Notes: generated from the letters alone by a model not told the origin. Positions 374 through 58,314 are shown, numbered from the stretch's first letter. The stretch: DNA of 64,000 bases from Pseudogymnoascus verrucosus (GCA_001662655.1 KV460210.1); one strand, 5' to 3'. Program-made: numbers and translations.

Positions 374-905
374 TGGGGGTGTTAAGCTACAGTAAACGTA
401 AATTTAGGGGGGGTTTTAGAATCTCTGAAATGTTGTCTCCACAACCGTCAGGGTATCAGTTTAAAAATTATGGGCCGGCATCCCTTCGGCAGTTACTCTT
501 AGCACTACAACCAGCTTATAAATCGAAAAGCATTGTAGATTAAAAGGCACATTTTTTCGCTCCTTTTTATCAAAATTTCGTTGCTTTGTCAGCTTGATAT
601 TCGCCTGGGTGGATATGGCGGGGTCATCCCTTGGCGTTGGCGGTGCCGAGGGGTAGTAACCAACAGATTTGGGTGGCCCTCTGGCCAATGAAAATGACAT
701 CATGAGGGGGATATTGGCCTTAAACACACCTTATCGCCAGTTTAGCGGCGAGGGGTATTATTAAGCCATAAGGCCTGTACGCTTTTACGCCAGGCGCATA
801 CTTTTGTTGCTGGGGTGTATATATTGCGATTTTCTCCTCTTCTCTCGGGTCTGTTTGTCTGTTTGAAAAGTAGTTCGGTTTTCTTCTGTTTATAGACAGC
901 TTTGA

Positions 906-2312
<1,407 letters not shown>

Positions 2313-4326
2313 AGGGGGGGGTCAGAAGTTAGATAGGGGCATAGATCTGAAGATAGATGGATAGATCTTACTTTTCGGTTCTCAGATAGAGTATTATGGA
2401 AGCCTTATTCCTGCCGCAGACACTTATATCAAACGAGACAAGCCTTGCCAGCGACAGTCTATTCTTTGGAAAATGAACGTTTTGCAAACCTGGAACCGTA
2501 GGGGGGCTTGCGCTTTCATTCGGATACATCACTATTATAGCCGAAATTCCCACTTCGAAGTGTAGCTCGATTCCTGCCACCAGTATCCTTACCGCTCTGT
2601 TCCTGTCACCGTATTCCTTTCACCGTGTACCTATCACCGTATTCCTACCACCGCGGTCGGGAGAACACTCTGTTCCTGCGTCCTCTTTCTTCTTTCATTC
2701 CGACCCTTCCTTTACGGGTGGGGCTCACTCTAATAAAACCCACTCAAGCATTGTACTCGACCGGCGTTTTTATCAAGGTAGACTTGAGGTGAGACTTGTT
2801 ATATATCCATCCCCGCGCCTTGATTTCATTTTGCAAGCGCCCAATGCACTTCAAGTGGCTTGATATATGGGACGATCCCTTGTCCCCGTGTCTCTACCAC
2901 CGTATTCCTGCCGCGATGCCACCCGCCAGCGTTCCTGTCATAAGAAGTGCGTCTTCCGTAGTATTCATACTGAGACGCTCTTTCCTCCACATCCCTTTTT
3001 CCCGTGTTTCTGCCGCCGGATTGCTAGCGTCATGGTCCTGCTGCCACGTTCCTGCCGCCACAACTCTCATCCACCACCGCCGCGCCGACAACCCCTTTAC
3101 TCCTTCCACATCACAACCACAACAACCGTTCCTTCCCTCTCACTTCAACAAACACATACAGCCCATCTTCCCACCCCCACCGGTTCGCTTCTTCTCGCCA
3201 AAACCTCGTCTCCATGAGATTTATTCGGTTCCTTTAACTTCCAAAAAACCAATATCTCGTCCTACAGACGTCGGGGAGAGTTCTCATACAAGGCAAAAAA
3301 AAATGCAAAAAATAGAGGATTCTCCTAGAAAGGGGGAAATACCCACACCCAACCACTGCATACACCTGTTAAGTGCAATTGAACTTCGTGGGTCCTCCAG
3401 GATGATTGACAGGTACTTGAGCGGGCCAAACGAGTGCAGATCGCTGTTATGCTCCTTCAGCCAGCCAACCATCCCAATTAATATGTAAAAGATAAACAAT
3501 ATTATATAGTTAGCTCCAAAGTCAACTTTATGGCTTCATTTGCAAATACAGCAAGTAGCAATGCTTTTTATAACTTGAGATCAAATATGAGAAGAGCTCT
3601 CATATTGAAGAATAATTTGGGAAAACTAGAAGAGTTGAAAGCAATGCTGTGGTGCGGAGTAAATAGAGAGTTGTTCTGCTGCATCTGCATGCAAAGAGGG
3701 CGGCGAGGGCGGCGATGGAGGAGGGGGCGTGACATGAGCGCTCACTAGAGCGCCATCCAAGCACGGCGTGTGAATTGACATATGAGAAACACCCACAGAA
3801 CAAATACTCTGCCATCTTAAACATCCTTTTTATGTGAAAATGAGTGCTCTAGGGACTGGATAAAAGAATTGTATATTATTTAGTGGGTGTCATCGCGGTT
3901 TTAAGTGAGTATCTGGAAGAGTCATACCGTTCACCTCATATTTGGATATGGCCTAATCGGGTAGGCTAACAAACCCGTGACTGTGTTCTCACAACAACTT
4001 TCGATATATCACTTATTAGCTTATGAAATTTAACATGTAGTCAAGTTTAAATATAATAATACTCTTCTTAGACCATTCATTCGACCTCCACAGAGTGGAT
4101 ATTCCTATAATGGGGCTGGTGATAATTATGAGCACGTGATAGAATATTATTATATTACGCAAGGTTGTGGTGTTAGAGTTGCTGTTTTTAGCTTGCATTG
4201 TCTGTCGAACATCTACTATGTCTCTCACATTGCCGCTTCTTGTGAAAATTAAAACTCCTAACAAGTAGCAAACCCATTTAACGTATGTGTCCTATGCTCC
4301 CTTATGCATCCGCCAGCCTCCTCGAG

Positions 4327-5668
4327 TCAGCTTTTGTTAGCCTTTCTAGCTGATGCAGACACATTAGTCGTATGCTTAGACGGCAGTTTAAACCCTTCTC
4401 CGTACCGCTCCATAAATTGCGAATCTCGCCCTTCTCTCTCCATATCGTCTGAGGCAGTTGCAGTCTCGCCTCCTAATCGCGGCTCCCTTTCATTAGTGGT
4501 ATTGATGGTGATGGTAACCATATCTCGCGATATCTGTCGGACAGTCTCGTTGTCAAGATAGCCACCTATTTGCCTCGACCTCCACCCAACCGCCCGATTT
4601 GTACCATGAAGAGTCTTTCCATTAGCTGAAACCATGACTTGCACCGCATCGCCCGTTGCATGATTCTCAATGATACTTATATTTTGCTCTAAATGGTTGC
4701 CTGCCGTGGATAGTATATCCATAGACTTCCGCGTTGACTGCCACTCTTCCCGCAACCTAGTAATGTCGGCTGCATTCTCTTGAGAGAAGGTGGCAGGCTC
4801 CAGCTTGTTCATTAGCCTATCAAAGAGCTGCTTCTCGTGGCTGGCCAACTGTTGGGCCATTCGAGCAAGACTGCCCTTGCACTCCTTTAGGCCATCGTTG
4901 GTGATTTTCTCAGGTATAGAGCTCGGGCCGTCAGCCGCATTAGCGCCAGCATTATGTAGAGTTGTGCGATGAATTTGGTCAATGTGTTCAGAGAGCTGGG
5001 AACAGATCTGTAGACATTTTTGTGTACTTAGGCGCTCGTCCTTTATCCGCTTCACTTCAGATGCGTTTAGTTCTGATCCAGCTACATTTTGACTAAGTAT
5101 ACGCTCAAGCTTCTCGTCCATTCTCTCAAGGTGATCCTCAAGGCCAGCTCTAGCGGTATCAAGGAGATCGTTATAGCTCTCAACGCTTTCAGCTGTAAGG
5201 GCAGACAGTCGACTGTGGAATTTTAAGGTCAGCGACTACTATAATGCACCAAGCGGCATCATCAGATACTTACAGATTTGCATCAGAGAGAGCAATAGTT
5301 ATAGTCATCTTGTAGCCGGATAGAACTCGTCTAAAGCTGTCAATGTCGTCCCCCATATACCTCAACCTAGCCCAATCTCGGAAGCTCGTACGGCTGCCGC
5401 TCGACCGCTGAGAACATTTGTGTATTTCTTGCTCGAACTCTTCGCAGGCCTTGCCGCATCGCCGAAGAGGAACCTCGAGAGCAGTAAGATCTAGGTCAGT
5501 AGAGCTTATCGTCTCCGTAAGTGAGCCTAGCACTCCACTTAATGCGCTGGTCTCTCTTGCGAAATCCCGTACGCGCTCTTGGTGAGAATTAAAGCTGTCA
5601 ACTGTCTTGTAGAGCGCGACGCTTGCCTGGAGGGCGAACGTGGCCAGATCTACTAACCCAGAGGCCAT
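4327..5668 (-). CDS. HeLo-like/PigL-N (fungal STAND N-terminal) domain protein, 2 exons
   Basis: Hydrophobic N-terminal helix MASGLVDLATFALQASVALY, then L..PL.RC..AC.EF..SFRDWARLRYMG.DI..F...L.GYK.TI.IAL typical of Helo_like_N; intron 5273-5213 (GTAAGT..CTGAC..CAG) joins it in frame to ORF 4327-5121. Confidence 0.75.
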
Positions 5669-6209
5669 TGTAAAACAAAGGCTACTCTAATGCAACAAAG
5701 TAAAGTTAGGACACAACACTTTTGCGATACAGACCTCAGGATTAAGTAGGATGATATTGTTGTCGTGGTTCTACAAAGCGTTCATGTTTTCATGTAGTGC
5801 TTTGCGCTACAACTAGACGGAGCGGGGTGTGATATTCCTTGGCGATTCTCTTGGGCGGGGTCACGTTGGACCGAGGAGACACAAGTTGTGGAGGTCAGAA
5901 AGCGGCGGAATGCCTGTGCACGAGCGTTGCCTAATTAGGTAGGCACTAAGCTTAGGCGGGTCAAACACCACAATCTAGATTATAAGTTTATATAAGGTTG
6001 TGGTGTTGGAGCGGCCGTTTTCGGCTGGTGTTAGTTGCTGCTTTACGCAGCCCTGAACACCAACATCTCATCACGTGCCTAGCTTGTGGTAAGTACCTTC
6101 ACATAGTAATTTGTATATAAAGGTACATAAATATGCCATTATCCGAAATTATCACCTCACCCCCACCCTCACTCCCACGCTCGCTTTCGGGGGCTTCTGG
6201 GTCTGGAAT

Positions 6210-6325
6210 CAGCAAGGAGGACACAGGCGGTGGCTATGGCAAGGTGTCTACCAGGGCATGGATCTGGCAAGAACGCCTCCTTGCTGAAAGAACGATATTC
6301 TTCACCCCTTCTGCCCTAAAATTCG
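6210..6325 (+). pseudogene. HET-domain (PF06985-like) gene fragment
   Basis: GKVSTRAWIWQERLLAERTIFFTPSALKF matches the L.TRAW..QERLL..R.L.F block of fungal HET-domain proteins; truncated by the transposon relic that follows. Confidence 0.6.
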
Positions 6326-6835
6326 CAGCTCAAACTCCAGAGGAATTGGGAGGCCAGCTTTGCGGAGCTGGGCCAGTGCCTTCTTCCGGAGGCGCTCTTC
6401 CTTCCGGGCCTCAACTCCAGCTCTACGGAGCTGCCTCTGGGCCCGGTTTGCAGCCTGGCGGGCTACCCGAGCTTCTTTGGCTCGGAGCTTCCGGGCCTGA
6501 AGCTCGTAAGCGTGGGTAGCTGTAAACTCACCTCCAACCTGAAGTCGGTCCCGGCTCCGGCTTGCCCGCTTCTTCGAGTCCTCCACCTGCCTCCGAACAG
6601 CCCGTAGGTCTAGCTCTTGGAGCTGACCTGCCACTACTACGTCTTCTGTGCTGGCAAGCCAATTCTGGTAGCTCTCCTTCGAGGGGCTGCTAAAGCCTCT
6701 ATAACCCAGTGTTTCCAGTGCTGTAGCCCCTCTTCTACCCACTGAAGAGTGGAGGGTTTAGGTGTAGAAACCTAGATTGGCAGTGCAGGTGTAGGCTCTG
6801 TAGTAGGCAGGATGTAATTCAGCGCTAAATTCTAG
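6326..6835 (-). mobile_element. Degenerate pogo/Fot1-like DNA transposase C-terminal fragment
   Basis: KKRASRSRDRLQVGGEFTA..RRAGVEARKEERLRKK..GLPIP resembles the basic helical tail of fungal pogo transposases; no DDE core or intact start. Confidence 0.5.
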
Positions 6836-7346
6836 AATGTTCTACACTGTAAGGCCAATCTCAACCCCAGTCAGAAGTTCATCCTTTTGTACTACAGTTT
6901 TATTTAATTACGCCAATCGTTGCGATGCAAAGCTCTCCAGTCATGATACTTTTCTTAGTCGCCCATCTCATTGCTCCCAAGTGTGGTCGCAACCCAGAGC
7001 GTCGCTTTGCGCATTGATCGGCAATGGAGTGATCAACCTGCATAGACCTGGCAGGACATGACTTGAACACGCGCAGGAAAACCTAGTAAGTACTTAGGCA
7101 ACCTTTATTGTCAATAGGTTCCCAGGCGACACCGTGAGGAAGAGAGCAGGGAAGAATCCTTACCGTAGCCGGACTTCAGCCGCAGCCTTATTACATTAGG
7201 CGGATGCAACTGTACGTTACGGGCGAATAAGAAATACCCCTCACTATTAACGACGAGATGGTGCTGGCACCAACTTACGAGAGGAAGTGCAATATAGGCT
7301 CTCGCTGGCGCCTTCCCCACCTTTGTAGCTTCCACGGTCCATCGCG

Positions 7347-10300
7347 ATGTCATATCCCAAACAACCAGGCAGGTCTAGCAAGCAACTAGGAAACATTTAT
7401 ACGAACGAAAACGCAATAGTCCACGTTGGGGATATACACCATATCGGTAAGCCCTTTTAGATATCAAAGAGGAAAACCACTGACACACGATAGGCCGAGA
7501 GGATCCCCTCGACCTCCTCCCATTTGCAACAAATGCACCGTTTAACTCCTACGACGGCCAACACGAACCCACCTGCCTTCCCGACACTCGCGTTGACCTT
7601 CTACAACAAATATATGATTGGGCGGATAGACAAGATGAGCGATGTATCTTCTGGCTAAATGGCTTAGCTGGCACAGGAAAATCAACAGTTGCGCGCACTG
7701 TCGCCCGCAGATTTTATGAGCAGAAGTGCCTTGGAGCCAGCTTCTTCTTCTCAATAGGTGGTGGAGATGTGAGCCATGCTGGCAAGTTCTTTACCAGTCT
7801 TGCTGTGCAGCTCGCGTATGCTGTACCATCTCTTCGAGAACATATCTCCGATGCTGTTTCTAAGTGCAAAGATATTGCGAACCAGTCCCTCCACGACCAG
7901 TGGCGCCAACTTGTCCTCCACCCATTATCAAAGCTGGACGACAACAGTCGCCAATGCTCATATATCTTGATAGTTGATGCGCTTGATGAGTGTAAGGACG
8001 ATAATAATATACGGATTATTCTGCAGCTCTTAGGTGAGGCTCGGTTGTTAAAGACAGTACGGCTTCGGGTCTTTTTAACAAGCAGACCTGAAATTCCTAT
8101 CCGATACGGTATGCACTATATCCCGCAGGCTGAACATCAGGACTTTGTTCTTCATAGTTTATCTCCATCGACTGTCGATCATGATATTTCAATATTCTTA
8201 GAATATAATCTTGCAGTGATCAGGCGGGAATGGGACCTTGGGCCTGGCTGGCCTGGTAATAAGGTTCTCGAACAGCTAGTTCTAAATGCTAGTGGCCTCT
8301 TCATTTGGGCGGCAACAGTATGTCGATTCATTAGTGAAGGAAAACAATTTGCAGCCAAGAGATTGGATGCTGTCCTTAAAGGCAGTAGCGACGCTGTTAC
8401 TGCACCAGAAAAGCACCTTAACAAGATATACGCTACAGTCCTTGGGCACGCTATTACAACTGAAGGCGCAGCAGAGAGGGAAGAGCTTGTTCACATGCTG
8501 AGACACATTCTTGGAAGTATAGTGGTCTTGTTCTCACCACTTTCTGCCTACTCTTTAAGCAGGCTTCTCCAGGTTAATATACGGCATGTTACCCGGGCAC
8601 TGGAGGGTCTTCATGCTATCTTAGATGTCCCAGAGGATCAAACGCACCCGCTCCGTCTCCATCATCCTTCATTTCGCGACTTCCTCCTTAATAAAGATCG
8701 ATGTGGCGATTTCTGGGTAGATGAAAGGCAGTCACATCAGATATTAGCCGATTATTGTATCCGTCTCATGGCTATATCTCTTAAGAAAGATGTTTCCAGT
8801 CAAGTAGTCCCTGGCACATATGTGGCTAACGTGGAGATTAGTCAAGTAGAGCAATTTCTTCCTCCAGAGGAGAATTACGCATGTCTGTACTGGATCGGGC
8901 ATCTTCAGAGGAGTAATACTCAGTTTTACGACAATGACCAAGTCCACATGTTCCTCCAGCTACATCTCCTTCACTGGCTTGAGGCACTTAGCTGGATGGG
9001 AAAGACTTCAGAAGGGATACTTGCAATATTATCCTTAGAGGCACTTGTTCCGGTAAGCCTTCGCTATAATATACTATAGAACCTTGACTTATCTATATCA
9101 AGGCTGGACAATGTCCCAATCTATACGCGTTTGTCCATGATGCAAAGCGATTTGCCCTGTACAACCGGTCAGTCTTCGAGCAGGCTCCCCTCGAGATATA
9201 TTCTAGTGCACTCTTATCCGCACCAACAAGGAGCATAGTGAGAAGACTGTTTAGGGACCAAGTACCCTACTGGATTCAGACATCGCCTAAAGTCCCAGAG
9301 GATTGGAGTTCCCTGCTACAAACGCTAAAAGGTCATTCGGATATTGTTAGCGCTGTTTCCTTCTCGCCAGACAGCAAGATGCTAGCATCGTCATCAAGGG
9401 ACAAGACTGCTCGGTTATGGGATGCAATCACAGGCGCTCTTCTGCAGACGCTAGAGGGCCATTCAAGCTTCGTTAATGCTGTTACCTTTTCACCTGACAG
9501 TAGACAGTTGGCGTCAGCATCAAGCGACAAGACTGTTTGTTTATGGGACGTAGTTACAGGGGCAGTATTACATACTCTCAAGGGCCATTCGAATGATGTA
9601 ACTGCTGTTGCCTTTTCGCCTGACAGTAGACAGCTGGCGTCAGCATCAACAGATGAAACAGTCAAGCTTTGGGATGCAGCTACAGGCGCTCCTCTGCAGA
9701 CGTTAGAGGGCCATTCAAGCTTCGTTAATGCTGTTGCCTTTTCACCTGACAGTAGACAGTTGGCGTCAGCATCAACAGATAAAACAGTCAAGCTTTGGGA
9801 TGCAGCTACAGGCGCTCTTCTACAGACGTTAGAGGGCCATTCAAGCTTCGTCAATGCTGTTGCCTTTTCACCTGATAGTAGACAGTTGGCGTCAGCATCA
9901 GCGGATAAAACAGTCAAGCTTTGGGACATAACTGTAGGTACAGTTTCGCAGATGCTGAAGGGCCATTTGAACGACGTAACTGCTGTTGCCTTTTCGCCTG
10001 ACGGTGGACAGCTGGCATCAGCATCGAAAGATAAGACAATAAATTTATGGGATCCATTGATGAAATCAGTGGCGCAGACACAAGAGGGAGCTTATAAGTC
10101 CTCGTTTCTTCAAGCCCAGAGATCAACTGACGAGATATCTTCAAACTTGGAGCGCGCCGACGCTAAGGAGAGTATCGAGCCCCAGATTAGAGTTCATGGC
10201 ACATTTTCAGATTCCGGATTTGCCTCGATGTCATCTTTAGCCGCTCCTAGTATAAGTAATCGTGTTGGCCAAACCCCAATTCAAGATAAACACAATATTG

Positions 10301-12350
10301 ACCAATTGCCAACAACTCCTAGTGATCAAGGGGACAACCAAAGCCCAGAGAATGAGCATAAACCAGGAGCTAGGACTACAGAAGCTGACAATGATGATTT
10401 GCAATCTGTCATTTCTGATAGGGACGAAATCTCCTCGCAAATTTCAACACAAAAAGCACAACAAGAGCTGCTTGCTGAAAAACACTTGGCTACTTTGTTA
10501 GGACAAAATGAAGATCTAAAGCCATTTTATGAAATTGCTTTAGGGCAAATGGAAAAGGAGCGCTTTGTTAACAATTTTCGAAGAATATTAAAGCGGTATT
10601 ATCTCGACCTTTTTCAGTCAGCAAATACAAATCTTGAGCGAGCGACAGTTCAAATATTAAGGAGCAGGTCCACGCGAGTCGGAATAGCGCAAGGTGTTGT
10701 GGATCGACTGACTCCCGAAAGTAATGAGGCTTATACTCAGCTTTTAGCTGATACACAAGACATCGAAGACAAGATTTCCGATTTAGAAAGTTGGATAGCT
10801 AGCAATCCTGGTTTAGTACCACCGCTAGAGCCTCAGGATAGTGGAGATGTAGTAGAAGGACAAGTGGACGACTTAGACAATATTGCCTCTGACAGTGATC
10901 AGGAAGGAGAGGAACAAGTCGTTACAAGTTATCCTTTACCAAATGTCGCGGGGATGGAGAGCTTTCTATTCCAAGGCAACGCATTTCGTTCACTTATAAC
11001 AAACACTTGCCTCTTTCTGCTCCCTGCGTCTCTCATTTCTCTTTCTCGAGTTCTTATGACGATTCCTTATAACAGGATATATTTCTCCTCCGAAGACAAT
11101 CTCTCAATCCTCAATCGAGTTCAAGGATTTGTAGAGGATCACACAGAAGAAAATTGGAATTGGTGGCCACTGCAGCCACGAATGCGGCCGTTAGGAAAAG
11201 ATCAAACGCGAGTATATTGGAAATGCGTAAGAACCTCTAGATAGAGTATTGTGTGGAATTATCTAACAAGATGTAGCACTGCGGCAGAACTCAGTGGGCA
11301 GAGATTTCACTATCTCAAGCAAACTCGTATCGATTAATATTACAAGAAAATAGACCAGTCTTGCAGAACAATCATCTCTGCAGAATCAAGCAGAAAAATT
11401 CGTGGCGCGCTACTTTGGGGAAGATGACCACTAAGACAGTTGGCACTGTCTCTACAAGAACCCAGCCGCTTACGACGCCAGGAATTACTCAACCACTCAC
11501 CCCGACCCCGCAAAGTATACAGCTCAAACCAAGCAGCGGTAGGGTACGCCAGGCTACTAATATCCTCCACAATCCTGCTGAACCTACTACAATTAATCGG
11601 AGTGAAGTTCGGGTTGGAATTAGTGAACTATCAGGAGGCCCATATGTTCTTTTTGGAGTCAAGGGTCCACGACGTACGTTGGAGCTAGAACAAATAGAAG
11701 TCAATGAAAATTCCGACGACAATACTTTTTTCCAAAGTCTGACGCAGGCTTATAGAAAACACCGAGGTTTTTGGCGGTATTGGTTCTCGATCTGGCAACT
11801 TACTCACTGCGATTTTGTAAAGGTTTGTGTAAATCCTTTATATTATATATTGACTGACAATGTCCAGTTTCTAAAGCTTAGAGCAAATCGTATAATTTTT
11901 CATAGCAAGAGTCTTCCAGACGATATAATATACGAATATCGACCTCGTCCGCCCACAGCCGAAAACCCGCCTATCCTCCCACACGAATTTGAGCTAGCTT
12001 TCTCAGCATGCTCTTCTAATTGCCTGCTCTCCACCTTGCACGATTGTGTAGATCCACCCATTGGGAAGTTTGCGGTAGAGCGGATTCCGAAACGGAAAAG
12101 CATGATCCACTTCTCTACTAATAATTTGGAATTTGCGTGGGGTATCCAAGCACAACACGCCATCTCAGCCCTCAGGATGGTAGTATACCATCTCCTTATC
12201 TTCGCTAGCACATTTGGATTTTGGGCGTGGTGGTTGGTATTCCATCCAAATGATTTGCAGAATGCGGCCGTGCCGCTCACCACAATTGTCGTGTTGCTTT
12301 CACTGTTTTGGGGCGCAGCAGGTGTTTTGAAATTTAGGAGGCAGGATTAG
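7347..12350 (+). CDS. Fungal NLR: N-terminal amyloid motif - NACHT - 6x WD40 - long C-terminal domain with terminal hydrophobic segments (~1600 aa, 5 exons)
   Basis: Exons 7347-7446, 7494-9052, 9103-11226, 11277-11822, 11868-12350 splice in frame at GT..AG introns. C.PDTRV..L..I..W, P-loop WLNGLAGTGKST, Walker B ILIVDALDEC, FLTSRPE, ASGLFIWA, LHHPSFRDFL; HET-E/NWD-type WD repeats. Confidence 0.88.
9316..10071 (+). repeat. Six tandem 126-bp high-identity WD40 repeats
   Basis: Unit LQTLEGHSSFVNAVAFSPDSRQLASASTDKTVKLWDAATGAL; repeats 4 and 5 are near-identical at the DNA level. Confidence 0.95.
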
Positions 12351-12964
12351 GTGTGGAGTTGAGTATAGCGAAACGTTCCTGTGCCCTATATTAGAGAGAG
12401 CACAGAGGTGATGGCACAATTCAAGAGGCTAGTATTGGCACATGTTAGGGGTTTGAATCCTTGGGCAGAAGTTTACTTTTGAAGTTTCGCTGCTTAAGAC
12501 GTTCTGGGCTAGCGATGGGGAAGCGCAAGACCTGGAGACATTAGGCAGACCTCATGATGGTCACGGCAGCTCTTCAAAGTCCATCCCCTTGATCACCGAC
12601 TTTGGCTGATCTACGGACCGCATGTATGAAATTGTGTCCGTATCTACATAGCCGGAATTGTCTCCGAGGTTCTGGATGAAGAGCTAGTAATCAAATGATA
12701 TTGAGGACGGGTTGACTGGTCAATATTTCGACCATCCTGGCTTAGATAGGCATCGTGGACATTCACATGGATGGGTTCTGGATCATTATCGAGGAAAATA
12801 AGAACTTCGAACCTAGCCCACGCAACAGGAGGACCAGCTTGGGCTCTTATACTCGGTGCAAGAGTTGAGACTGTTGGCGGGAGCTCGTGGATTGGCGGAG
12901 GGCGAGTTGGATGGGAGGCGTAAGGAACTTTCGCCTCTTTAGTGCCTTTAAGATTAAGTTAGTC

Positions 12965-13200
12965 TGTAACGCTGCTTCCTAAAACGATAGGATACACAGA
13001 GGTTTCTTGCGTAAGGGTTGACTTATCAGAGGAAGCAGGGGATCAGACACAAAGGCTTCAAGTAACGCGTTACAGTATATAACAAATATTATATTGAGTT
13101 GAGCACGAAACTCTAATCTAAGAAATAACTATCTACTTTTGAAGTGGCGTCGTGCCAAGGGATATATGGATAGTATGGATATATTAACATATCCTTCTGT
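12965..13200 (+). mobile_element. Solo-LTR-like repeat, copy 1
   Basis: Starts TGTAAC; aligns over ~230 bp with the reverse complement of 58055-58314. Confidence 0.65.
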
Positions 13201-14617
13201 TCCATGTATCCAACGTGATTCTTCTCCTGGGAGCCTAATGCTCCTGGGAAAACCCTTCTCCGGGGAGAATCATCCTAGGAGCTTACTAGTCCTAGGACAG
13301 CCCTCCCAGGAGCCTCCTGGTCCTAGGAGAAAACTCCTAAGTTGGTGTCCCGTAACCTGCACCTCCGACACCACGATCTGGATTACCCTATCAATCATCA
13401 TGTTGGTGCAGGGGTTGCGGAAACCCGCTGTAACAAAGTCGCCCTGCGTTTCACGTTGTAGTGGTGGAGAATAATATGATCCATCGGATAAGCCAAGCTA
13501 GCTAGGCTGCGAGGACCTGAGAGTAATTATTTTTCTTGCCAAGTCGGAAGACAACTCCCGCTCTGATCGCCAATAACCATTTCATACCGTTACTGCTCCT
13601 GAAATGGCCCTGTGCTGGCAGCATGTAATGATGTACGGTTACGCTCGCGCTACACCTCACTGAGCCAAAAAGACTACAATATTCCAGCTCGGCTGGAATA
13701 CGCGTAACACGCTATATATACTGTAACGGTCGCACGCCGGCACCCCGTTACACAGCACTCGCGGCAGCTAGCCTCTTTTCTTTCAAAAGAAGGAATATTT
13801 CTGAACTATGCCTACTGTGAAGACAATTGCTTTAAAAGCATCGAGTAACTAGCAGTGGCTAGATAGAACAACATTTAAAGTCAGACGACTCTGTTAGCAA
13901 TAACTGTCTACTCTCAGTATCTACCTGTCTACAATCCTAGGGGTGTTCCTGTATCACCGCCTTGAAATGAAGGTGAAGCGCAGCCTACAACGCATGGATG
14001 GTTGCAGCCCCGATAGCCTTCGAGAGGGACCTCTACTTTCGATCTCCGGGATGCGAGTACAGGCCCCTAACAAGCTAGGCGGGCAAACAGAAATCGGCCC
14101 TTCTCTCGAAGATCAGCCTCGACGGAGGCAGGCGTCGCTGCTCTCAGTGCCTATAACTCATAATGTTGCAAAAGGTAATGTAGGGCAGTCTCGCAAAGGC
14201 CAGCGCCATTCCACCGCGAGATAGTCGGGGAGGAAGCTGCCCTTGCATAGAAGTTGAAGGCGGCGGCAGGCCTGTCCATGCGCGTTGCTCAATTAGGCGG
14301 GCGCTAAACCCGAAGCTCGAACACCACGATCTAGATTATAAAATATAATAAGTTAATTAAAAATAGTTTTAATACTCACACCACTTGAAGTTAGAAAAGC
14401 TCATATTTTATCTAAAATTTAATACTACGGATATAAGCTATTAGAATTTATTTCTTCGGTTCTATTTATAAGAAACTGGATTGCTGATTGTGGCCCTGAG
14501 ACTGTGCGCCTTGGCTTAATAATAGTTACTGTGAACACCGATGTTACCCGCAATCTACCTTCCGGCTTTTGGGCGGCACAAATGCTTTAGGCATTTTATT
14601 ATGTACTTATAATTTAT

Positions 14618-15092
14618 CAGTGTTCGGCACGGATACCAATATACCCTTGGTATCCGGGTATATACCCGAGTATATACCCTACCTGTCGATATTCTAGAGT
14701 ATCCGGTGTATCTGGGTATATACCCGGGTATATGCTAAGAGTAGCCAAGCATCGCTAAGGCTTCATTTTAGAGACGTCGTCTCGACGATATGCTTAAACT
14801 ATAGCCTTATAAGCATACTAATATCCTTAATATCTAATTATTACCTATTACTTAGGCTATTTAGTAGTTCTAGTAACCTCTATAGTCTTAAAATGATATT
14901 TAGTAATAGTAGTAATATTATTATAAAAAAGTATAATAAGTTATTACTACTAAAAGCTTCACTTTCATATGCTTTTATTCAGCCTCATGTATCCGGGTAT
15001 AAACCCTACTCTACCCGTCAGATCTTCGCCGGGTATATACCCTACCCGTGAGTTTCACGGATACTACCCGGATACATATCCGCCGAACACTG
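14618..15092. mobile_element. hAT-type MITE (non-autonomous, 475 bp)
   Basis: 11-bp TIRs CAGTGTTCGGC / GCCGAACACTG; perfect 8-bp TSD TAATTTAT (14610-14617, 15093-15100); repeated subterminal GGGTATATACCC palindromes; AT-rich core. Confidence 0.9.
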
Positions 15093-15295
15093 TAATTTAT
15101 AGTGTCTATTATAAACGTGCAAGCTGAATAAACCATAGCCTTGGCTGTACCTTCTATTAAATTTGTAATTTGACATATTCATCCCTCATAGCCTCAGCTT
15201 CCCCCGAAGCTGTATTTTAGTGCACGCTTGCGCGGCCAGGTCCAACAGACCTCAAAACCCCTAGTACACTAAGAATTCGGACTTCAGAAGTAATC

Positions 15296-16413
15296 TCAAT
15301 CTTCTTCGAACCACTTATCTTCCAAAAGATCTTGGGCAGTCAGCCGATCTCTTGGGTTGAGTTTCATCACCCTGAGCACAAACTCTTTATCCTCCTTGCA
15401 AGTTTCTCGGGCGGTTGTAAGATGGAAAGGTCTCATCGACTTCGGAGGGGTGTTTTTCATTATCCACACTAAAACCGCCAATCTTTCCTGGTTCGCAATC
15501 TGCTCGTACGACTCTGGAAATGGTCCGAAACAGATATGGTGTCTCATCAGAATTTTGACCTCGTATTCATCATGGCCTACGGAAACGTCTGGTTTGAAGA
15601 TGTGGAACCCTTCTCCGTATATGAGACTGATAAGCTGTAGTATCAATAAAATTAGACCGAGAATAAATAATTTAGTGTAGAGGGATAATTTAAAACTTGC
15701 CGTTGCACCAAAAGACCAGATGTCAGTTGCGGTACCCCATCTCATTTGCAGATGTGCTTCTGGGCTCCTAAACATAGGTGTTCCTATCGAGTCCCCATCC
15801 CGGGCATGAGTAGAATCCACATGGACAGTGCTCCCAAAATCAGCCAGTTGAACATCCTTAAACCGAATTCCAACTGGCGCATAATTCGCAAGTATGTTGC
15901 TTAGCTTAACGTCTATAGTGCATCTTGGTTAGAGAGTTCCATATAAACGCGGTATTGGTCACATCTCAAGAAACGGACATGTGTGAACAAAACCCTCAGT
16001 ATGCAAGATAGCTAGCGCCTTTAGCACCCTACGTGCGACATATTTAACTTCAAGTCGTGTGAGGCGCTGGAAATTAGAAGCTTGGAGTACGTCGACATCT
16101 AGATGTCTTAAGTAAGACTCGGAGGGCTGTGGGTGGATTCAACCTCGTCAAGTAGCGGGCGGATGAATGGTGTTCGGTTTTGGAACCGAATTAGAATATC
16201 TCGTTCGTTTTCTAGGCGAAAGTGGTTAACACTTTTAACAACTACATTCTCGTTGTTTTGGTTCCATCAATGGCATTAATTAAAGCCTATAGTAGGACAT
16301 GTTATTTTAGGAACGCACGTTGCTAGCCACACGCAGCCCTGCAGTTGCTTCGTAACTGTATAAAGGCTGTGTTTACCCTTCAATGTTTGACCAAGCTTCA
16401 TCGCAGTACCCAT
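15296..16413 (-). pseudogene. Ser/Thr protein kinase (fungal CMGC/SRPK-like), apparently inactivated
   Basis: VVVKS, ADFG, GTPMFRSPE, TDIWSFG motifs; 1-nt frameshift near 16112 (..agt ctt act TAA); spliced catalytic loop reads HT-Y-VKLSN instead of HTD.KP.N. Confidence 0.7.
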
Positions 16414-16614
16414 CTTTTAGATGGCCATTGGGAGAGGTGGTAGGTGGCATTTACGTGAGGCAGTGTCGAACTATGCACGTGATGTAGATTCCAGCCTTAA
16501 ATTTCATATATCACATTCATGGGATTGTCTATGTAGCCTATGGTCAACATATAACTTGGAAGCTATTATTGAATTCGCAACTTCATATTCTTATCTATAT
16601 ATCTATCAACGCTC

Positions 16615-17928
16615 TCAATACTCAGTAACCTGCTTAATGCTATCATAAACCCCTTCACACACCTGTCAGTAACTGTCGTACAAATTATAAAGGAAGGTAA
16701 CTTACTCGCAACATCTGGGATATTGAGCTTCTCATACAACAACGGCATATGTATACTCCATCCCGCACACCTCTTCACCGGCGCCTCCAGCCTCAAAAAC
16801 GTCTCCTTATCTTCTTGGATAGCGGCGGCAACCTCAGCCCCGATACCCGCATTAATCATGCTCTCATGAACCACCACACAACGTCCCGTCTTCCTCACAC
16901 TCTTTAGAACAGTCTCCTTGTCCCACGGGTATACCGTCCTCAAATCGATCAACTCCACGCTCAATCCCAAGTCTTTCTCGATGTGCTCGATCGCTGCACT
17001 GCAGGTGTACAGAGGGTGGCCATATGAGATCACAGTCACGTCGGAGCCTGGCTTCATGATCTCCGCGGATGATAGAGGGAGAGTGTATGAAGAGACGGGG
17101 ACTTGCTCGACGGCAGCGCGGTAGAGGGCTTTGGGCTCCATGAAAATGCAAGGGTCGTTCGAGGCGATGGCCGCCAGCAACAGGCCCTTTGCTTGAATGG
17201 GACCGCGAGGCATGATGACGCGCAGGCCGGGGATATGTGTAAATAAACTCTCTGGGGATTGCGAGTGGTATCTTTGCTTGGTTAGCATCTTATTTTGACA
17301 AAACCGAAATACCTGGGAAGGGAACATACAAAGCACCATGACCAACCCCACCACAAGGCATCCTAACGGTGAGACCACCAACACCCCTTCCATTCGTTCC
17401 ATCACGATACCTATACTTGGCCGCCTCGTTCACAAGCTGGTCAAAAGCCGGGTATACATAATCCGCGAACTGAATCTCGGCTACAGGCCGCATTCCTTCG
17501 GCCGCCAGCCCAATCCCGAAACCCAAAATACCCTGTTCAGTAAGCGGTGTATTAAAGACGCGATCACTGCCAAAGTTCTGCGACAGGTTCATCGAGCACC
17601 GAAATACTCCTCCAAAGGCCACATCTTCGCCGAAGAGGAGCACTGAGTCGTCTGTTGCCAGAGCGGTCGAGAGCGCGTCATTGATGGCTTGGAACAGGTT
17701 CATGCGCTTCGTTGTGCTGTTTCGAACTTCAGCAGAGAGCTCGGGGTTTCTTAGAGCTGATTGAGAAGAGTGACTGAGGATTGGAGTCGTGGAGAAGTCT
17801 GTCGGTATGTTGAGCCGGGCATTTGGAGGGCTTGTCGAGTACTGGCGGCCACTTGCGGTCGAGGAAGCGGATGAGGTGACGGCACGTAAGACCTGCGCCG
17901 TGGGGCGAATTATCCTGAGAGACTTCAT
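16615..17928 (-). CDS. BCKDHB: 2-oxoisovalerate (branched-chain alpha-keto acid) dehydrogenase E1 beta subunit, mitochondrial; 2 introns
   Basis: [58 protein letters not shown] after splicing; Arg/Ser-rich presequence. Confidence 0.95.
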
Positions 17929-18294
17929 GCTGGGCAACACTCTACAGGACTCAAAAATGAATTATGAAGTTAGAAGAGACAAAGGGATATATCCCCATTC
18001 TTTTCAAAGCGTTGAAGTATGGGGAATGCGGGCGGGGAGGGCTTATCGGCTACCTGCGGCTTGTGGTGGGAGTCGCATCGTCGAGTCCATCCCGCTTCCA
18101 GACCCTTATCGTCGCACAGGCCACGCGATTGTTGCTCCGTCAACCGCCAAGTGACGACGCTGACCCTGCAATTACGAGATGCAAGGATGCGGTCGCAAAA
18201 GATGTCGACGATACCGATTAATTAATCTATTATTCTAGAACGAAGGCATATACAATTGAATAGATCGAATTATCGTTTTGGTCGCAAGGATAGA

Positions 18295-20508
18295 ATGCCT
18301 CGCGAGGCTGAACGACCCAGAAATCGGGAGCGAGATCCGGATAGAGAGCGAGAGAGGGAGCGGCGAAGACGTGAAAGGGAAAGAGACCCAGAAAGGGAGG
18401 AGCGACGGCACCGCGAACGGGACCCGGATAGGGAACAACGACGGCGTGAAAGGGACCCGGAAAGAGAGCTGGAGAGGGAGGAACGAAGGAGGGAAAGAGC
18501 GAGGAGGAAATCCCGAAACCCTGATAGAGATTCGAGGGACTCGAGGGACTCCCGGTCAAGGGAGGAGCCGCCTTCCTCACAATCAAGTTCGCAACCCCTA
18601 TCCGCCGATTCACTAGCGAAACTCAATCAACTCAATAAGAAAGAGAAGTCGCGAAAACCAGAGAAAAAGGCGGAACGGCCCAGGAAAAAGCGTCACAGGG
18701 AAGCGTTCAATGAGAAATACGAAGCGATCGGTGTCGACAAACCAAGGCGGGACAAGAAGAAAAAGAGGCGAGTTGTGAGCGGCGCCTTACTAGAAGAAGG
18801 GGATGGAAAGAGGTTATCGTATATAAGAGGAGGAGGTTACGACAAACAGGCGGAAGCAGATGCAAGGAAGAGGAAAAAGCGGATATGGATCATTGTTGGA
18901 GTTATTGTTTTGCTACTTGCCATTATTATACCCGTTGCCGTTGTTCTTTCCAACAAGAACAAGGGCAGCAACACAGCCGCAGCGGATACAGCGGCGACGG
19001 CTCCGACGCCTACAGGACCGGCGAATACGAATTTGGATGGCGTTGATCCTGCTAGCGTACCAGCAGCTGCGAAGGGGACGCGATTGGATCCTTTCTCCTG
19101 GTATGACACGGAGGATTTTAATGTCACGTACACTGGCGCGACAGTTGGTGGGCTGCCAGTAATAGGGTTATTCTCGAAGTGGGATGACTCTGCGAAAGCA
19201 AACGACAAAGTGCCAGCATTGAACCAGCCATGGGGAACCTATGCAAGTAGGCCCGCTAGAGGTGTCAACGTAGGGGGCTGGTTATCGATAGAGCCGTTTA
19301 TCACGCCCTCGCTGTTCAGTGGTTATAGCACGAGTCTTGGGGTTATTGATGAATGGACGCTATGCGAGCACCTGGGCCCGGCTACCGCAAAGGACACTCT
19401 GGAGAAACATTACTCCACATTCGTGACGGAGCAGACGTTTGCAGACATCAAAGATGCAGGCCTGGACCACGTCCGTATTCCATTCTCATATTGGGCCTTG
19501 CAAAATTACTACGGCGAGCCTTACGTCGAAGGCGTAGCATGGCGATACCTCCTCAGAGGGATCGAATGGGCTCGCAAATACGGTCTCCGCATCAACTTAG
19601 ACGTACACGGTTTGCCAGGTAGCCAAAACGGCTGGAACCATAGCGGTCGCCAAGGAGACATCGGCTGGCTCAACGGAACCGACGGCGATGTCAACGCCGA
19701 GCGATCCCTCGAGATCCACCGCTCCCTCTCGGCATTCTTCTCCCAGCCGCGCTACAAAAACATCATCGCCTTCTACGGCCTCGTCAACGAGCCCAAGATG
19801 ACAGCCTTACAACCAACCGACGTCTACGCCTGGACCGAGAAGGCATACGCCATCGTCCGCGCAAACGGCATCACCTGTCCTATCGTCTTCGGTGACGGCT
19901 TTCTGGGTCTCGAGAACTGGAAGGGGCAGCTGCAGGGCCATGAGGGGCTGGTGCTTGATGTCCACCAATACGTGATTTTTAATGTGGGACAGATCGTCTA
20001 TACTAAGGAGGCGAAAGTCAAGTATGCTTGCACGGGCTGGACGGGGCAGGCGGAGCAGAGCATGGATGTCTCGACGGGCTTTGGACCAACCCTCTTCGCT
20101 GAGTGGTCACAGGCCGACACCGATTGCGCCACATACCTGAACAACGTCGGCTGGGGAAATCGCTGGGAAGGCACCTACGACACCGGCAACCCCCTAACAC
20201 GCGTACTCTCAGCAACATGCCCCACCAACAACGGCGGTCCAGTATGCTCCTGCACGTCCGCAAACGCGGATCCAAGCCAGTATTCCGACGGGTACAAGCA
20301 GTTCCTGCAGATGTTCGCGGAGGCGCAGATGGATAGCTTTGAGCACGGGTGGGGCTGGTTCTACTGGACGTGGCAGACGGAGACGGCGACGCAGTGGAGT
20401 TATAAGAGGGGTCTTGCGGCGGGGATTTTGCCGGCCAAGGCGTATGCGCCGGAGTTTAATTGTCAGAAGACGATTCCGGATTTTGCGGGGGTGCCGGAGA
20501 ATTATTGA
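18295..20508 (+). CDS. exgD: GH5 glucan 1,3-beta-glucosidase, type II membrane protein (ExgD-like)
   Basis: RE-rich cytosolic N-terminus, one TM helix (IWIIVGVIVLLLAIIIPVAVV), RGVNVGGWLSIEPFITPS, DVHGLPGSQNGWNHSG, catalytic NEP and AEWS. Confidence 0.9.
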   Translation: MPREAERPRNRERDPDRERERERRRRERERDPEREERRHRERDPDREQRRRERDPERELEREERRRERARRKSRNPDRDSRDSRDSRSREEPPSSQSSSQPLSADSLAKLNQLNKKEKSRKPEKKAERPRKKRHREAFNEKYEAIGVDKPRRDKKKKRRVVSGALLEEGDGKRLSYIRGGGYDKQAEADARKRKKRIWIIVGVIVLLLAIIIPVAVVLSNKNKGSNTAAADTAATAPTPTGPANTNLDGVDPASVPAAAKGTRLDPFSWYDTEDFNVTYTGATVGGLPVIGLFSKWDDSAKANDKVPALNQPWGTYASRPARGVNVGGWLSIEPFITPSLFSGYSTSLGVIDEWTLCEHLGPATAKDTLEKHYSTFVTEQTFADIKDAGLDHVRIPFSYWALQNYYGEPYVEGVAWRYLLRGIEWARKYGLRINLDVHGLPGSQNGWNHSGRQGDIGWLNGTDGDVNAERSLEIHRSLSAFFSQPRYKNIIAFYGLVNEPKMTALQPTDVYAWTEKAYAIVRANGITCPIVFGDGFLGLENWKGQLQGHEGLVLDVHQYVIFNVGQIVYTKEAKVKYACTGWTGQAEQSMDVSTGFGPTLFAEWSQADTDCATYLNNVGWGNRWEGTYDTGNPLTRVLSATCPTNNGGPVCSCTSANADPSQYSDGYKQFLQMFAEAQMDSFEHGWGWFYWTWQTETATQWSYKRGLAAGILPAKAYAPEFNCQKTIPDFAGVPENY

Positions 20509-33919: not shown

Positions 33920-35892
33920 CGTCTGTACGTTGTGAAGTATTACTGTGCTTTTTTTCGCTGCAAAAGTGACTGCGCAACTCGAGCCTTTGTTCGATGCGAA
34001 GAGTCCGACGAGTATGAAACTACGTAGGAGTCTAAAATCGAGATGTACTTAGGATCGTAGTATAAGATGAATCGCGTTGCAGGTCCCCAACAGTAGTATT
34101 AAGAATCGACTTGGAAGGACTCGAAATGATTCGAAGGAATCGGATCTTGAAATGAGCTTGATTGGAAAGGCAAGTCGAAGAGAATCGACGACAGGGAGTA
34201 TTTCAAGCGATGAACTGAAGAAAGTGTGAGTGTGGGCTGAGAAAAAAGCCTGGATGACAACGAGGCGCGCAAAGACGGGCTTCTGTTATACCTTTCGCGA
34301 CTGGAACAAATCGAAAGACGTGGAAGGAAGATCAATGCGATGACACCGACTGACGACGATTATGACTTAGGACCCGGTAGAAGGGAAGAAACACAAGCAG
34401 AAAGGAGAAGATATGGGAGAAGGAAGAGATGAGAGAAGTAGAAAACCACCGCCTCAAATCTCAAAAATCTCACAACGGCCTTGGGTCGATGAGGATATGT
34501 TGGTATTAGAGATGGAGGAGGGAGGGATCGAGGACAAAAGGTGGGGAGGTGGAAGGTGGGTGTGGAAAGGGAGGGAGGACCAAAGACGGCAGTGGGATGA
34601 ATGGACACCCGTAAATATGCACACCCCCACGGTCGACAGAGCTTCAGTGGGTGGTATAGGTGGCATAACTCTGGTATAGTACTACAGTGGACGACAGATT
34701 ACGGCAGCTACTACATGCCCTAAGCTTAATCGGTCGCCGTAGCTGCGGTATGTGATGGGACGCTGGTGAGGTCAAAAGACACGGCCGGGGGTGCGTCGAG
34801 TAGAATTAGCGTAGTTTCACTCGAAGCGAAGGGATGGAAGGGACGCTACTGTATGTAGGTACTATGTATGGAGATGTAATGGTCAAGTGAGGCTGTGGGG
34901 GTCTGTTTGTCTTGAACAAAAAATAACGACGAGGTCTTGTTGGTCCTGTTGGTAATAGAATAGTTAATTACTATGGTAATGGTATGTTCTTTGTGAGCTG
35001 TTCTTTTATATAATATATGAGATATATATAAGATACAAGCAAGAACACCGGAGACAGATGGGGTGTGAGTGAGTAAAATCAGAGATGGTACTTCCGTCTG
35101 TTCTATTTGTGCCTGAAAACCACACCCAAACTCAATTGGCTGGTTGTACAGTACTATACTGGCGTGCGAGATGTGATAAGGTGGGCTGATTGTGCATGAA
35201 ACTCCTGCAGGGTACTTGAGCTGCGTAACTTGCTCATAGGTTGTGCGTAAGTTGTGCGAAGAATGGTATCAGAGAGTATATAGAGTTAGATATGAGATCA
35301 AGTTGATCCTAAACATTGTAGTGTTCATACCGAGCGCACAAAAAATATATAAAATGTCTTGGATTTAGGGCTGGCGGGAGGAAAGACGCGCTTCTAGGGA
35401 GTAATCCTACAATTATTAATTTACCCCTATGTCAAAATTACATATCTAGACTTTATGCAAATTGTATATAAGACGGGAAAAAATGATAAAGAATATTTGT
35501 TATCCCCTTGACACAGAAATACCTCCATGCGGTCTCATCTGATCCTTAAACATCCAACATAATCCTTCCTCTAGAATGGATGGACCCCTTAACTGCGCCT
35601 CAAGCCGCTTCCTCTTGCCAAATATAACAGATCGCCATGTCACGTGCCACCGCTCTACATGGTCCGTGCTGCTCACCACTTTGAAATCGCCTAGCGAGTC
35701 GCGTCAAACCGCGTCAACTTCAGGTGGTAAGGTACGTACTACAATCGCAGGGAAACAAAGTGAACGACTCGAACAACTCCGCCAAATAATCGCACCCACG
35801 AACAAAACAGCAGCCATGAGCCACTAGCCTCCCTTTCACTCACAGGACACCCGGGCAAAAAGCATTCCCGAACAGCCTGCAAAGTCGATTGC

Positions 35893-38800: not shown

Positions 38801-38922
38801 AGGGGAGGGAGAATAAGAAGCAGGAGAAGGTGCAGGGGGAGGTACAGAAGTTGGAGGATAGGGCGATGGAGGAGGTGCTGGATTGGGATGAGGATGAGGA
38901 GGCTATGGCTGCTTATGGATGA
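35893..38922 (+). CDS. PIF1: ATP-dependent 5'-3' DNA helicase PIF1 (introns 36433-36482, 37858-37912)
   Basis: [85 protein letters not shown]. Confidence 0.95.
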
Positions 38923-52907: not shown

Positions 52908-54055
52908 CTAGGGAGGAAGAGGAAGGGTTGAGGCGGGGGAGAGGAGGGAAGACAGGGGCAGGAAGCTCAGGGGCTAACGTGGAAGAGTGAAGAGAAGAGA
53001 GGGAAGAAATGCACAGAAAACTCAAAAGTTGAGGAGAAAAGTAGTTGAAAATTGAAAGAGGGAGAGACAAGGGGAGGATAGTAGAGCAGAATGGCCGAAT
53101 CGATTAGCAGTGTTGCTGTCTTAGGCTCTGATGATCTTTCTCTGTACTACCATACCTAGAAAAACTCAGTGTTTCCCACTGCTCGTGCGTTTTCCAAAAC
53201 TGCTGCATATTGCAAATTATGCAGCCTTCGTAGCTTATGCGGGCGCGTTGTGGATCTCCCTCAAATCTAGGTTTTTTCTCCTTCTCATTTCCGTTAAAAT
53301 TTCTCCCCTAAGTGTAGCTTGCTCTAGAGATGCTAGCAGTAGGTGTCGCACCGTTTAGCCACCTTAGCTACATTTGCACTCACTATCCGTGATGTCTAGC
53401 CCCTGTCTTTAAAACAGATATTGTCGAGGTTCGACCTTCGCAGTCGTCTGTGTCTGTATAATGATCGAGTTGAGGGGCTGGCGTAGTACTGTGTGTAGTT
53501 GCAGCTTTTTTTGCGTCGGACTAGGCACAAGCTTGTAGGTCATCCACCCCCTGGTCTCTCTATCCCATGCCTCGGACCATTCGTTTTGGATCTACTACTT
53601 TAGTTTCCCATTTGCTGCCGAGTGTGATCCGAGTTATTACCACTATCCTTCATCTCCTCCTTCCCCCTATTAATTGTGTCTATCCTGTTGGTTTTTTAGC
53701 TAATGAGTTTGCTAGGTCATTTTTATACTTTTGCGTACTACATTTAACTACCAATGGGCCGTAACAGTACAATTGTAAGATCCATGAAAATCGTCGAGAT
53801 ATTCCACGAAGCACTATAGTATTGATGAGTCGAAAAGAACTAACGTTAGAACCCTTAAATCAAATATCAAAACCTCGAAGCGGCACACCTCGAAATACTA
53901 CATTATGACCGGACCATTCACAGAGGGGTCCGCAATGGGGGCAAAACATGGATCCATTTATGAAGAGAACTAATCCTAAACTTAACCAACTTTTTGTAGA
54001 CTCTCACAGCTTGTAATAATCATATTACCAGCGCGCCATGCCACGTTTGAAGCCT

Positions 54056-56234
<2,179 letters not shown>

Positions 56235-58054: not shown

Positions 58055-58314
58055 TGTAGTAACCCCACGATAACAACGATATGTTAGGTATTTGTTATCC
58101 ATGATATTAAGGATATCCTTTGCACGGCTCTACTATGTAAGTAGATAGTTGTTTGCTAGATAGGAGCTTTGTGCTCAACTTAATACAGCATCTATTATAT
58201 CCTAGTAACGTGTTACTTAAAGCCGTTATGTCTAATCCCCTACCTCCTCTTTTAAGTTAAACCTTTACGTAAGAAACCTTTGTACGTTCTATCATTTTAG
58301 GACGTAGCGTTATA
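58055..58314 (-). mobile_element. Solo-LTR-like repeat, copy 2 (RIP-like mutated)
   Basis: Reverse complement aligns with 12965-13200; the start reads TATAAC for TGTAAC and the end is ..CTACA; many differences are G>A / C>T. Confidence 0.65.

Follow-up and report, generated by a model that had tools for sequence, protein, structure and literature searches.

Shared asymmetric ends around a HeLo-like and an NLR-type gene in Pseudogymnoascus verrucosus, possibly the termini of a Helitron2-type element family

The 64,000-nucleotide stretch of Pseudogymnoascus verrucosus DNA analysed here (GCA_001662655.1 KV460210.1; hereafter the window) contains two adjoining segments, unit A (1.8 kb) and unit B (8.4 kb), each of which starts with one kind of end sequence and finishes with another. 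Unit A encloses a gene for a HeLo-like protein and unit B a gene of the nucleotide-binding oligomerization domain-like receptor (NLR) type, and the ends that they share belong to a low-copy, dispersed repeat family. The original prediction, made from the bare sequence, had described such ends and had pictured the two units as cassettes by which fungal immune genes are mobilised and stacked. The features of the two units are as follows, in order of their position in the window; one of them is a miniature inverted-repeat transposable element (MITE).

4161-4193, plus strand: L1, left (5') end of unit A, whose inverted-repeat core (AGGTTGTGGTGTT) is 13 nt long; GCT/AGC form a small hairpin.
4327-5785, minus strand: cargo gene of unit A, coding for a PF17111 (PigL_N) protein, with one intron near 5214-5274 (Pfam, tblastn).
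5898-5985, plus strand: R1, right (3') end of unit A, with a subterminal inverted core (AACACCACAATCT, 5964-5976), a 10-nt palindrome (AATCTAGATT, 5972-5981) and a tip that reads ...GATTATAA.
5986-5994, plus strand: inter-unit spacer GTTTATATA, 9 nt between the R1 tip and L2, absent from relatives without unit B.
5994-6088, plus strand: L2, left (5') end of unit B, whose core pairs with AACACCAAC at 6056-6068 and so encloses two small hairpins.
6089-6831, minus strand: remnant within unit B of a pogo/Fot1-like (DDE_1) transposon, a truncated 3' part (homologues, tblastn).
7329-12350, plus strand: cargo gene of unit B, composed of NACHT, WD40 and a further module (Pfam, protein alignment).
12962-13120, no strand assigned: high-copy MITE-like repeat in the tail of unit B; a second one, 79% alike, lies at 58157-58312.
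13353-13385, plus strand: R', an additional right-end tip, degenerate and internal (CGACACCACGATCTGGATTA), recognised by its likeness to the R2 tail.
13787-14341, plus strand: the family's conserved non-coding 3' region (555 nt), ending in R2 and recognised by its likeness to a metagenome contig (L002).
14256-14341, plus strand: R2, right end of unit B, with core AACACCACGATCT at 14320-14332 and palindrome ATCTAGAT at 14329-14336.

The left-end motif, AAGGTTGTGGTGTT(A/G)GAG..GC.GTTTT..GCT, lies at 4161-4193 and 5994-6026. L1 and L2 are identical at 27 of 33 positions, a score reached in none of 1000 shuffles, and are 82% alike when searched by blastn against the 64-kb window (E 7.6e-4). The right ends R1 (5898-5985) and R2 (14256-14341) agree at 76% over 88 alignment columns (blastn E 7e-13), with a local alignment score of 71 where the maximum of 300 shuffles was 24. 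The last 21 nt of the right ends, AACACCACRATCTAGATTATA, occur exactly twice in 64 kb, the expected number being 0.00. R' (13354-13385) matches the tail of R2 at 26 of 32 positions, with none of 1000 shuffles as good, and aligns with the other four right tips available, giving for all five the consensus ACACCAC.ATCT.GATTA. The palindrome overlapping the right repeat (AATCTAGATT or ATCTAGAT) is intact in four of the five tips and is interrupted in R' by a single A-to-G change. The shuffles and blastn searches thus place the left and right ends described in the original prediction, including the partial third right end, beyond chance, and the ends pair in left/right order. No further copy of a left or right end was found by blastn elsewhere in the window. 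A left-like core follows R' at 13454-13468 and is equalled by 55 of 1000 shuffles; it is only marginal, and we therefore claim no third unit.

The cores of the left and right ends are inverted copies of each other. Those of L1 and R1 are complementary at 14 of 16 nt (88%) and those of R1 and L2 at 18 of 22 nt (82%), with 18 nt between the latter two arms. Allowing at most one mismatch, the 12-mer core occurs three times in the window against a shuffle mean of 0.27, and three or more occurrences were seen in none of 100 shuffles. As single-stranded DNA, the junction at 5940-6030 folds at -17.8 kcal/mol (z -4.9; equalled by none of 200 shuffles), which confirms both the inverted cores and the hairpin junction that had been predicted. 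The L2 end folds as DNA at -18.1 kcal/mol (z -2.8; equalled by 2 of 200 shuffles). Its small inner hairpin is GCCG/CGGC where that of L1 is GCT/AGC, the alignment indicating a compensatory change from T-A to C-G. The first 9 nt (AGATTATAA) of the 18-bp AT-rich spacer of the original prediction form the conserved right-end tip outside the repeat, so that the right repeat ends 9 nt inside this tip and only GTTTATATA is spacer. Since GTTTATATA is absent where unit B is absent, the spacer is part of the variable segment. The exact 5' terminus would lie anywhere from 0 to 10 nt before the left core. Upstream of L1 no right-end relic was found (350 and 851 of 1000 shuffles as good), nor was a left-end relic found downstream of R2 (724 and 434 of 1000). 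No Rfam families or tRNA genes were found at the ends.

The contents of the units agree with the prediction in their main genes, a PF17111 gene in unit A and a NACHT/NPHP3_N plus WD40 gene in unit B according to Pfam. The two exons of the unit A gene match PF17111, a family formerly named HeLo-like N, at E 4.8e-54 and 4e-18; the protein is 93% and 87% identical to proteins named Pseudogymnoascus, which points to a Pseudogymnoascus-like fungus as the source, and tblastn of one homologue (P0003) covers 5785-4405. In the unit B gene, NACHT/NPHP3_N extends over 7484-9079 and WD40 repeats over 9088 to about 10100. The module that follows (10243-12350, intron 11227-11276) is in the same frame as the WD40 repeats and is homologous to the whole of a 674-aa Leptodontidium protein, residues 6-673 of which (P0121) align at 59-67% identity; it may be an unrecognised NLR-associated domain. 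In other Leotiomycetes this module is annotated as fused to other N-terminal parts, among them NPHP3_N/NACHT, protein kinase and DUF6590. An N-terminal effector domain was not found in 6807-7460, and the approximately 500 nt between the pogo fragment and NACHT contain no recognisable domain. Relative to their ends, the genes of units A and B are oppositely oriented.

Directly after L2, a left end of 94 nt, a different repeat starts abruptly at 6089. An open reading frame at 6302-6757 (151 aa) has 64 homologues at E<=1e-3, DDE_1 being present in 5 of the 16 that were scanned, and tblastn places residues 374-547 of a 586-residue transposase (P0146) at 6831-6329. Contigs of relatives, described below, match sharply from 6089 onward, six in X2 and three in X3 among the matches listed, a limit that applies to all contig counts given here; therefore 6089 is the end of a multi-copy transposon, 5'-truncated here and represented by its last ~740 nt. 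A plus-strand frame at 6121-6519, considered as the N-terminus of the NLR, was rejected as antisense to this pogo-like transposase fragment. The MITE-like repeat at 12962-13120 has the ends CTGTAACGC/GCGTTACAG, and its position 13089 is covered by 30 contigs of X1. A piece related to it lies at about 13624-13754. Genes and debris of transposons make unit B a mosaic, not a tidy cassette. No Rep, helicase or recombinase, and no DDE beyond the pogo fragment, was found in the scanned frames of units A and B, so the earlier statement that no intact transposase or recombinase is present holds for the scanned units, with the addition of the truncated pogo-like piece. ESM Atlas look-ups of two unexplained frames returned unnamed clusters only.

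The locus was compared with contigs from the probable source genome (X1) and three other organisms (X2, X3 and X4), relatives about 94-98% identical in the flanks. All were aligned to window positions 500-18500; the difference of their flanks from the window is about 2-7%. Where a relative has no cover for some part of unit B, this part was counted as absent only if one contig bridges the gap. A 14.8-kb contig of X2 follows the window over 3457-5960 and, after 5 letters, continues with 14320-14609 and 15093-18500. A 9.2-kb contig of X4 matches 3457-5985 and, after 7 letters (AATATAA), continues from 14354. In both, therefore, unit A has a single right end, directly followed by the flank that in the window follows R2; unit B and GTTTATATA are absent, and no bases are duplicated at either empty site. 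In X3, a 13.6-kb contig matches 3623-5982, continues with approximately 4565 nt unlike the window (at >=80%) and resumes at 14413. One site thus has three states in four genomes, namely empty (two genomes), with unit B, and with another segment of ~4.5 kb. Clean presence/absence breakpoints, proposed beforehand as a check, were accordingly found for unit B in X2 and X4, within the right ends and without duplication.

Two further repeats were seen in the flanks. A 483-nt hAT-like MITE occupies 14610-15092; its terminal inverted repeats are CAGTGTTCGGC/GCCGAACACTG, and 8 nt of target sequence (TAATTTAT) are duplicated around it. None of X2-X4 has it at this place, where their contigs skip cleanly from 14609 to 15093 and 8 nt fit either side. 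The element is multi-copy in each of the four genomes, and this copy seems to have been inserted recently in the lineage of the window. On the other side, at about 3094-3457, is a short repeat where the contigs break in each of the four genomes and the depth rises threefold; no inverted repeat was found in it.

Copies of the ends outside the locus establish them as a dispersed repeat family, and to this extent the original prediction is supported. X1 has the 3' region in an additional copy with 104 nt missing, and contigs of X1 break at 14340/14341. X2 and X4 contain copies of the 3' region though unit B is absent at the locus, and in each of them one contig matches L1 up to 4193 and goes over to L2 from 6026, a third type of left end. 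Variants of the L2 end at 6013/6016 are represented by two contigs each in X1, X2 and X3 and by six in X4, and those at 6029 by 3-6 contigs per genome.

Public metagenome contigs scanned with the 20-nt right tip gave six loci (L001-L006). L002, a contig of 1789 nt, matches in reverse complement 14227-14345 at 87.6% and 13787-14220 at 68-75%. It thus has the last ~550 bp of unit B in common with the window, and the likeness ends exactly at ...GATTATAA. Because the likeness runs through several frames and both strands, 13787-14341 is non-coding. L004, a fungal contig with housekeeping genes (Med7, proteasome, DUF747), shares only the last 27 nt of the tip (26 of 27), located downstream of a fungal-kinase fragment; no left-type core (<=2 mismatches, element's strand) was found in the 10 kb upstream. 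Conservation in the 3' region is higher than at the 5' end, and the left terminus, unlike the right one, is not delimited by a sharp break in likeness. L001, L003, L005 and L006 are low-GC contigs with nothing alike beyond the 20-mer, L001 and L006 being identical in sequence, and were treated as chance matches. In L002, the tip is directly followed by tandem repeats of a 13-nt sequence, CAATAAATTCTAA with variants (reverse complement 1617-1760); tandem repeats and microsatellites are described within some Helentron-derived elements (PMC4067079).

On balance, with the scale tipping only slightly, the shared ends are best read as termini of a low-copy, non-autonomous family of rolling-circle transposons of the Helitron2 or Helentron type (HLE2). 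This assignment is favoured because of the layout of asymmetric terminal inverted repeats (ATIRs), the palindrome, the L2 hairpin, the absence of duplication, the dispersed family, the extra tip and the tandem order. ATIRs, that is short (8-18 nt) asymmetric inverted repeats of which the 5' copy is terminal and the 3' copy subterminal, are described as a trait of Helitron2 (PMC3627910) and HLE2 (PMC11417382). The repeats found here are of this short asymmetric kind, with cores of 13-16 nt, the empty sites at the locus show no target duplication, and the dispersed copies show a sharp terminal break in likeness, all as in HLE2. Chellapan et al. report imperfect palindromes overlapping the ATIRs of Chaetomium Helitrons, and both multiple termini and tandem copies are known for Helitrons (PMC5148889). 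The capture of whole genes is documented for a Helitron-like element of Botrytis cinerea (bioRxiv 10.1101/2022.03.07.483234). Of the two origins considered beforehand, the Helentron-type one thus fits the anatomy; the integron-like one is not supported, no recombinase having been found in the scanned frames and no complementary half-sites at the outer borders.

If the Helitron2 assignment is correct, a RepHel protein (HUH nuclease-helicase) encoded elsewhere would nick the left end and peel off a strand as far as a right end; the peeled strand would be circularised, joining R to L, and the circle would be re-inserted into AT-rich DNA without target duplication. The state with unit B would then reflect insertion and not deletion. 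Unit A is old and fixed, unit B sits directly behind its right end, and R', a spare internal 3' end, is best understood as a relic of end bypass.

Several observations weigh against this assignment. If unit B was inserted after the R1 tip, its left core lies 9-10 nt from the 5' end, where distances of 0-2 nt are given for Helitron2 (PMC3627910) and 2-4 nt for HINEs (PMC4067079); the right repeat lies 9 nt from the tip, compared with 20-30 nt in Helitron2 (PMC3627910). The 3' palindrome of 8-10 nt overlaps the repeat and has a stem of just 3 bp, the folds of R1 and R2 are no better than those of shuffles (z +0.4 and +0.8), and for L1 a 5' hairpin is not significant (z +0.3). No RepHel gene with the family's ends was seen in the window, and no Helitron_like_N match in the scanned frames (25 of 59 that are at least 140 aa long in the 64-kb window, to which the domain scan refers throughout). 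Unit A is present in all four genomes, with no polymorphism and no sign of mobility. Inside unit B, 10116-12519 occurs in a single copy in X1 and is absent from the three relatives at >=80%, and therefore no donor copy is seen. HLE2 elements insert between T and T; the junction at the locus, ...TTATAA|AATAT..., reads A|A on this strand and T|T on the opposite one, and within the R1/R2 homology the cut is not placeable. The polymorphism of unit B could equally be a deletion by R1-R2 recombination. The comparison of ends at the sequence level comprises five right tips and two left ends, a small sample. The one Pif1-type helicase seen in the window, at 36471-38922 (gene 35764-38922), was considered as the Helitron helicase; it is without a Rep (HUH) domain and was taken as the host Pif1.

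The deletion view can be extended to the whole family. The ends could be relics of an old transposon family, Helitron-type or not, that is now immobile; A and B would both be ancestral, R1-R2 recombination would have removed B from two relatives, B would have been rearranged in the third, and the genes would never have been cargo. R1 and R2 are indeed direct repeats 8.4 kb apart, and the X2 and X4 breakpoints fall inside their homology, just as repeat-mediated deletion leaves them. The single-copy interior of unit B with no donor in sight, the diverged ends (R1/R2 76%, L1/L2 82%), the many other transposon fragments in unit B and the fixation of unit A in four of four genomes can all be accommodated as well. 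We nonetheless regard this history as unlikely. At 76% likeness, with near-identity over at most ~25 nt, R1 and R2 would be a poor substrate for homologous recombination; it also has to explain three states at one site in four close genomes, and copies both in all four genomes and on an unrelated metagenome contig whose likeness ends at the tip. The family being dispersed, its ends moved at some time. Another, undescribed or known class of transposon that mobilises DNA between unlike ends without duplication is rather improbable in our view. It would account for the repeat-terminus distances and the weak 3' hairpin, which miss the quantitative features of Helitron2, and the enzyme behind the family was not found in the scanned sequence; no class that makes a target duplication fits, none being present here, and the qualitative layout matches HLE2. 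To our knowledge, the terminal-inverted-repeat classes of fungi make target duplications. Cut-and-paste transposons of this kind (Tc1/pogo, hAT, Mutator, PIF) were excluded, as the conserved tip AGATTATAA lies outside the repeat and the empty sites of X2 and X4 are without duplication.

A more specific proposal is that the R-spacer-L junction is a recombination site of the integron, Crypton or Starship-captain kind, at which circular cassettes integrate into the right end through a tyrosine or serine recombinase encoded elsewhere. The junction does resemble the core site of a recombinase, with imperfect 22-nt arms around an AT-rich spacer, and folds at z -4.9; the same spot is empty, occupied by unit B or occupied by a different 4.5-kb segment in the relatives, and crossover of a circle within the R tip would give the observed structure. 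Such a system should leave traces that are missing, in that no recombinase was found in the scanned frames or in the units, the outer borders have no R relic before L1 and no L relic after R2, an R end with no L arm is what the relatives have at their empty sites, and L002 and L004 have solitary R tips followed by unrelated DNA. We know of no site-specific cassette system of this type in fungi and consider the proposal quite improbable. Starships are tens to hundreds of kb long and have a DUF3435 tyrosine-recombinase 'captain' at the 5' end; with units of 1.8 and 8.4 kb and no DUF3435 domain in the units or the scanned frames, they were excluded. That the motifs are a chance likeness, or regulatory sequences shared by neighbouring genes, is barely credible. 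The small number of units in the window, just two, and the AT-richness of the flanks speak for it, but the shuffle tests argue against chance, and regulatory sharing is contradicted by the opposite orientation of the genes relative to the ends and by the occurrence of the ends elsewhere without such genes.

The right end of unit A could be a reusable landing pad behind which NLR and cell-death genes are stacked head to tail in a locus-specific manner, provided that the segments share L and R ends. We give this little credence. If true, it would be driven by an HUH or a site-specific enzyme and would represent a eukaryotic counterpart of a gene-cassette array, as opposed to scattered transposition. 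The stacking of immune genes that had been predicted would have two units only to show for it, and the predicted mobility of unit A is not borne out, this unit being fixed in the four genomes.

Botrytis cinerea, which belongs to the same fungal class (Leotiomycetes), provides one point of comparison. The element of its strain Vv3 likewise has whole captured genes, transposon relics and strain-specific presence, and differs in its length of 15.5 kb, its helicase gene, its 33 copies and its subtelomeric position, a likeness drawn from its description and not from its end sequences (bioRxiv 10.1101/2022.03.07.483234). With Helitron2/HLE2 elements in general, such as FoHeli of Fusarium oxysporum and HINE/DINE-1 of arthropods, the units have in common the asymmetric repeats with a subterminal 3' copy and, less clearly, the 3' palindrome and (in L2) the 5' hairpin, and furthermore the absence of duplication, extra termini, tandem copies, captured host genes and a 3' end better conserved than the 5' one (PMC3627910, PMC5148889, PMC4067079, PMC11417382). 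They differ in the repeat distances, the very short 3' stem lying over the repeat, the low copy number and the cargo of whole NLR-type and HeLo-like genes. The terminal sequences of the units match none of the quoted termini, such as those of FoHeli (TCAG...ATTTT and TGCCT...CTCCTGT). Integron arrays are similar in their head-to-tail units, imperfect inverted-repeat sites and the use of one spot by different units, whereas here no integrase was found in the scanned frames, complete border sites are missing, solitary ends are dispersed and the host is a eukaryote.

NLR and HeLo-type genes of fungi differ greatly from strain to strain, and their gain and loss are only partly understood, Starships being one known carrier. 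Starships are described as moving accessory genes, including those of NLR type, between fungal genomes and as giving presence/absence polymorphisms (PMC9156397). If small Helitron2-type elements also transport entire NLR-type genes and insert one behind the other, this would be a second, finer-grained route of turnover. New here are the termini of the family and its cargo of NLR-type and HeLo-like genes, Helitron capture, tandem copies and multiple termini being already known; the hinted repeated use of a single site may be new as well. Among the titles and abstracts covered, a range that most subscription journals lie outside, none dealt with Helitron-type elements bearing NLR genes in fungi or with native Helitrons in Pseudogymnoascus. 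The termini would allow such elements to be found in Leotiomycete genomes, standard Helitron finders using other end signals.

Apart from the two units, the window contains at 51645-54991 convergent, adjoining genes for an alpha-amylase (CBM20) and a glucoamylase (GH15 + CBM20), a starch-degradation pair.

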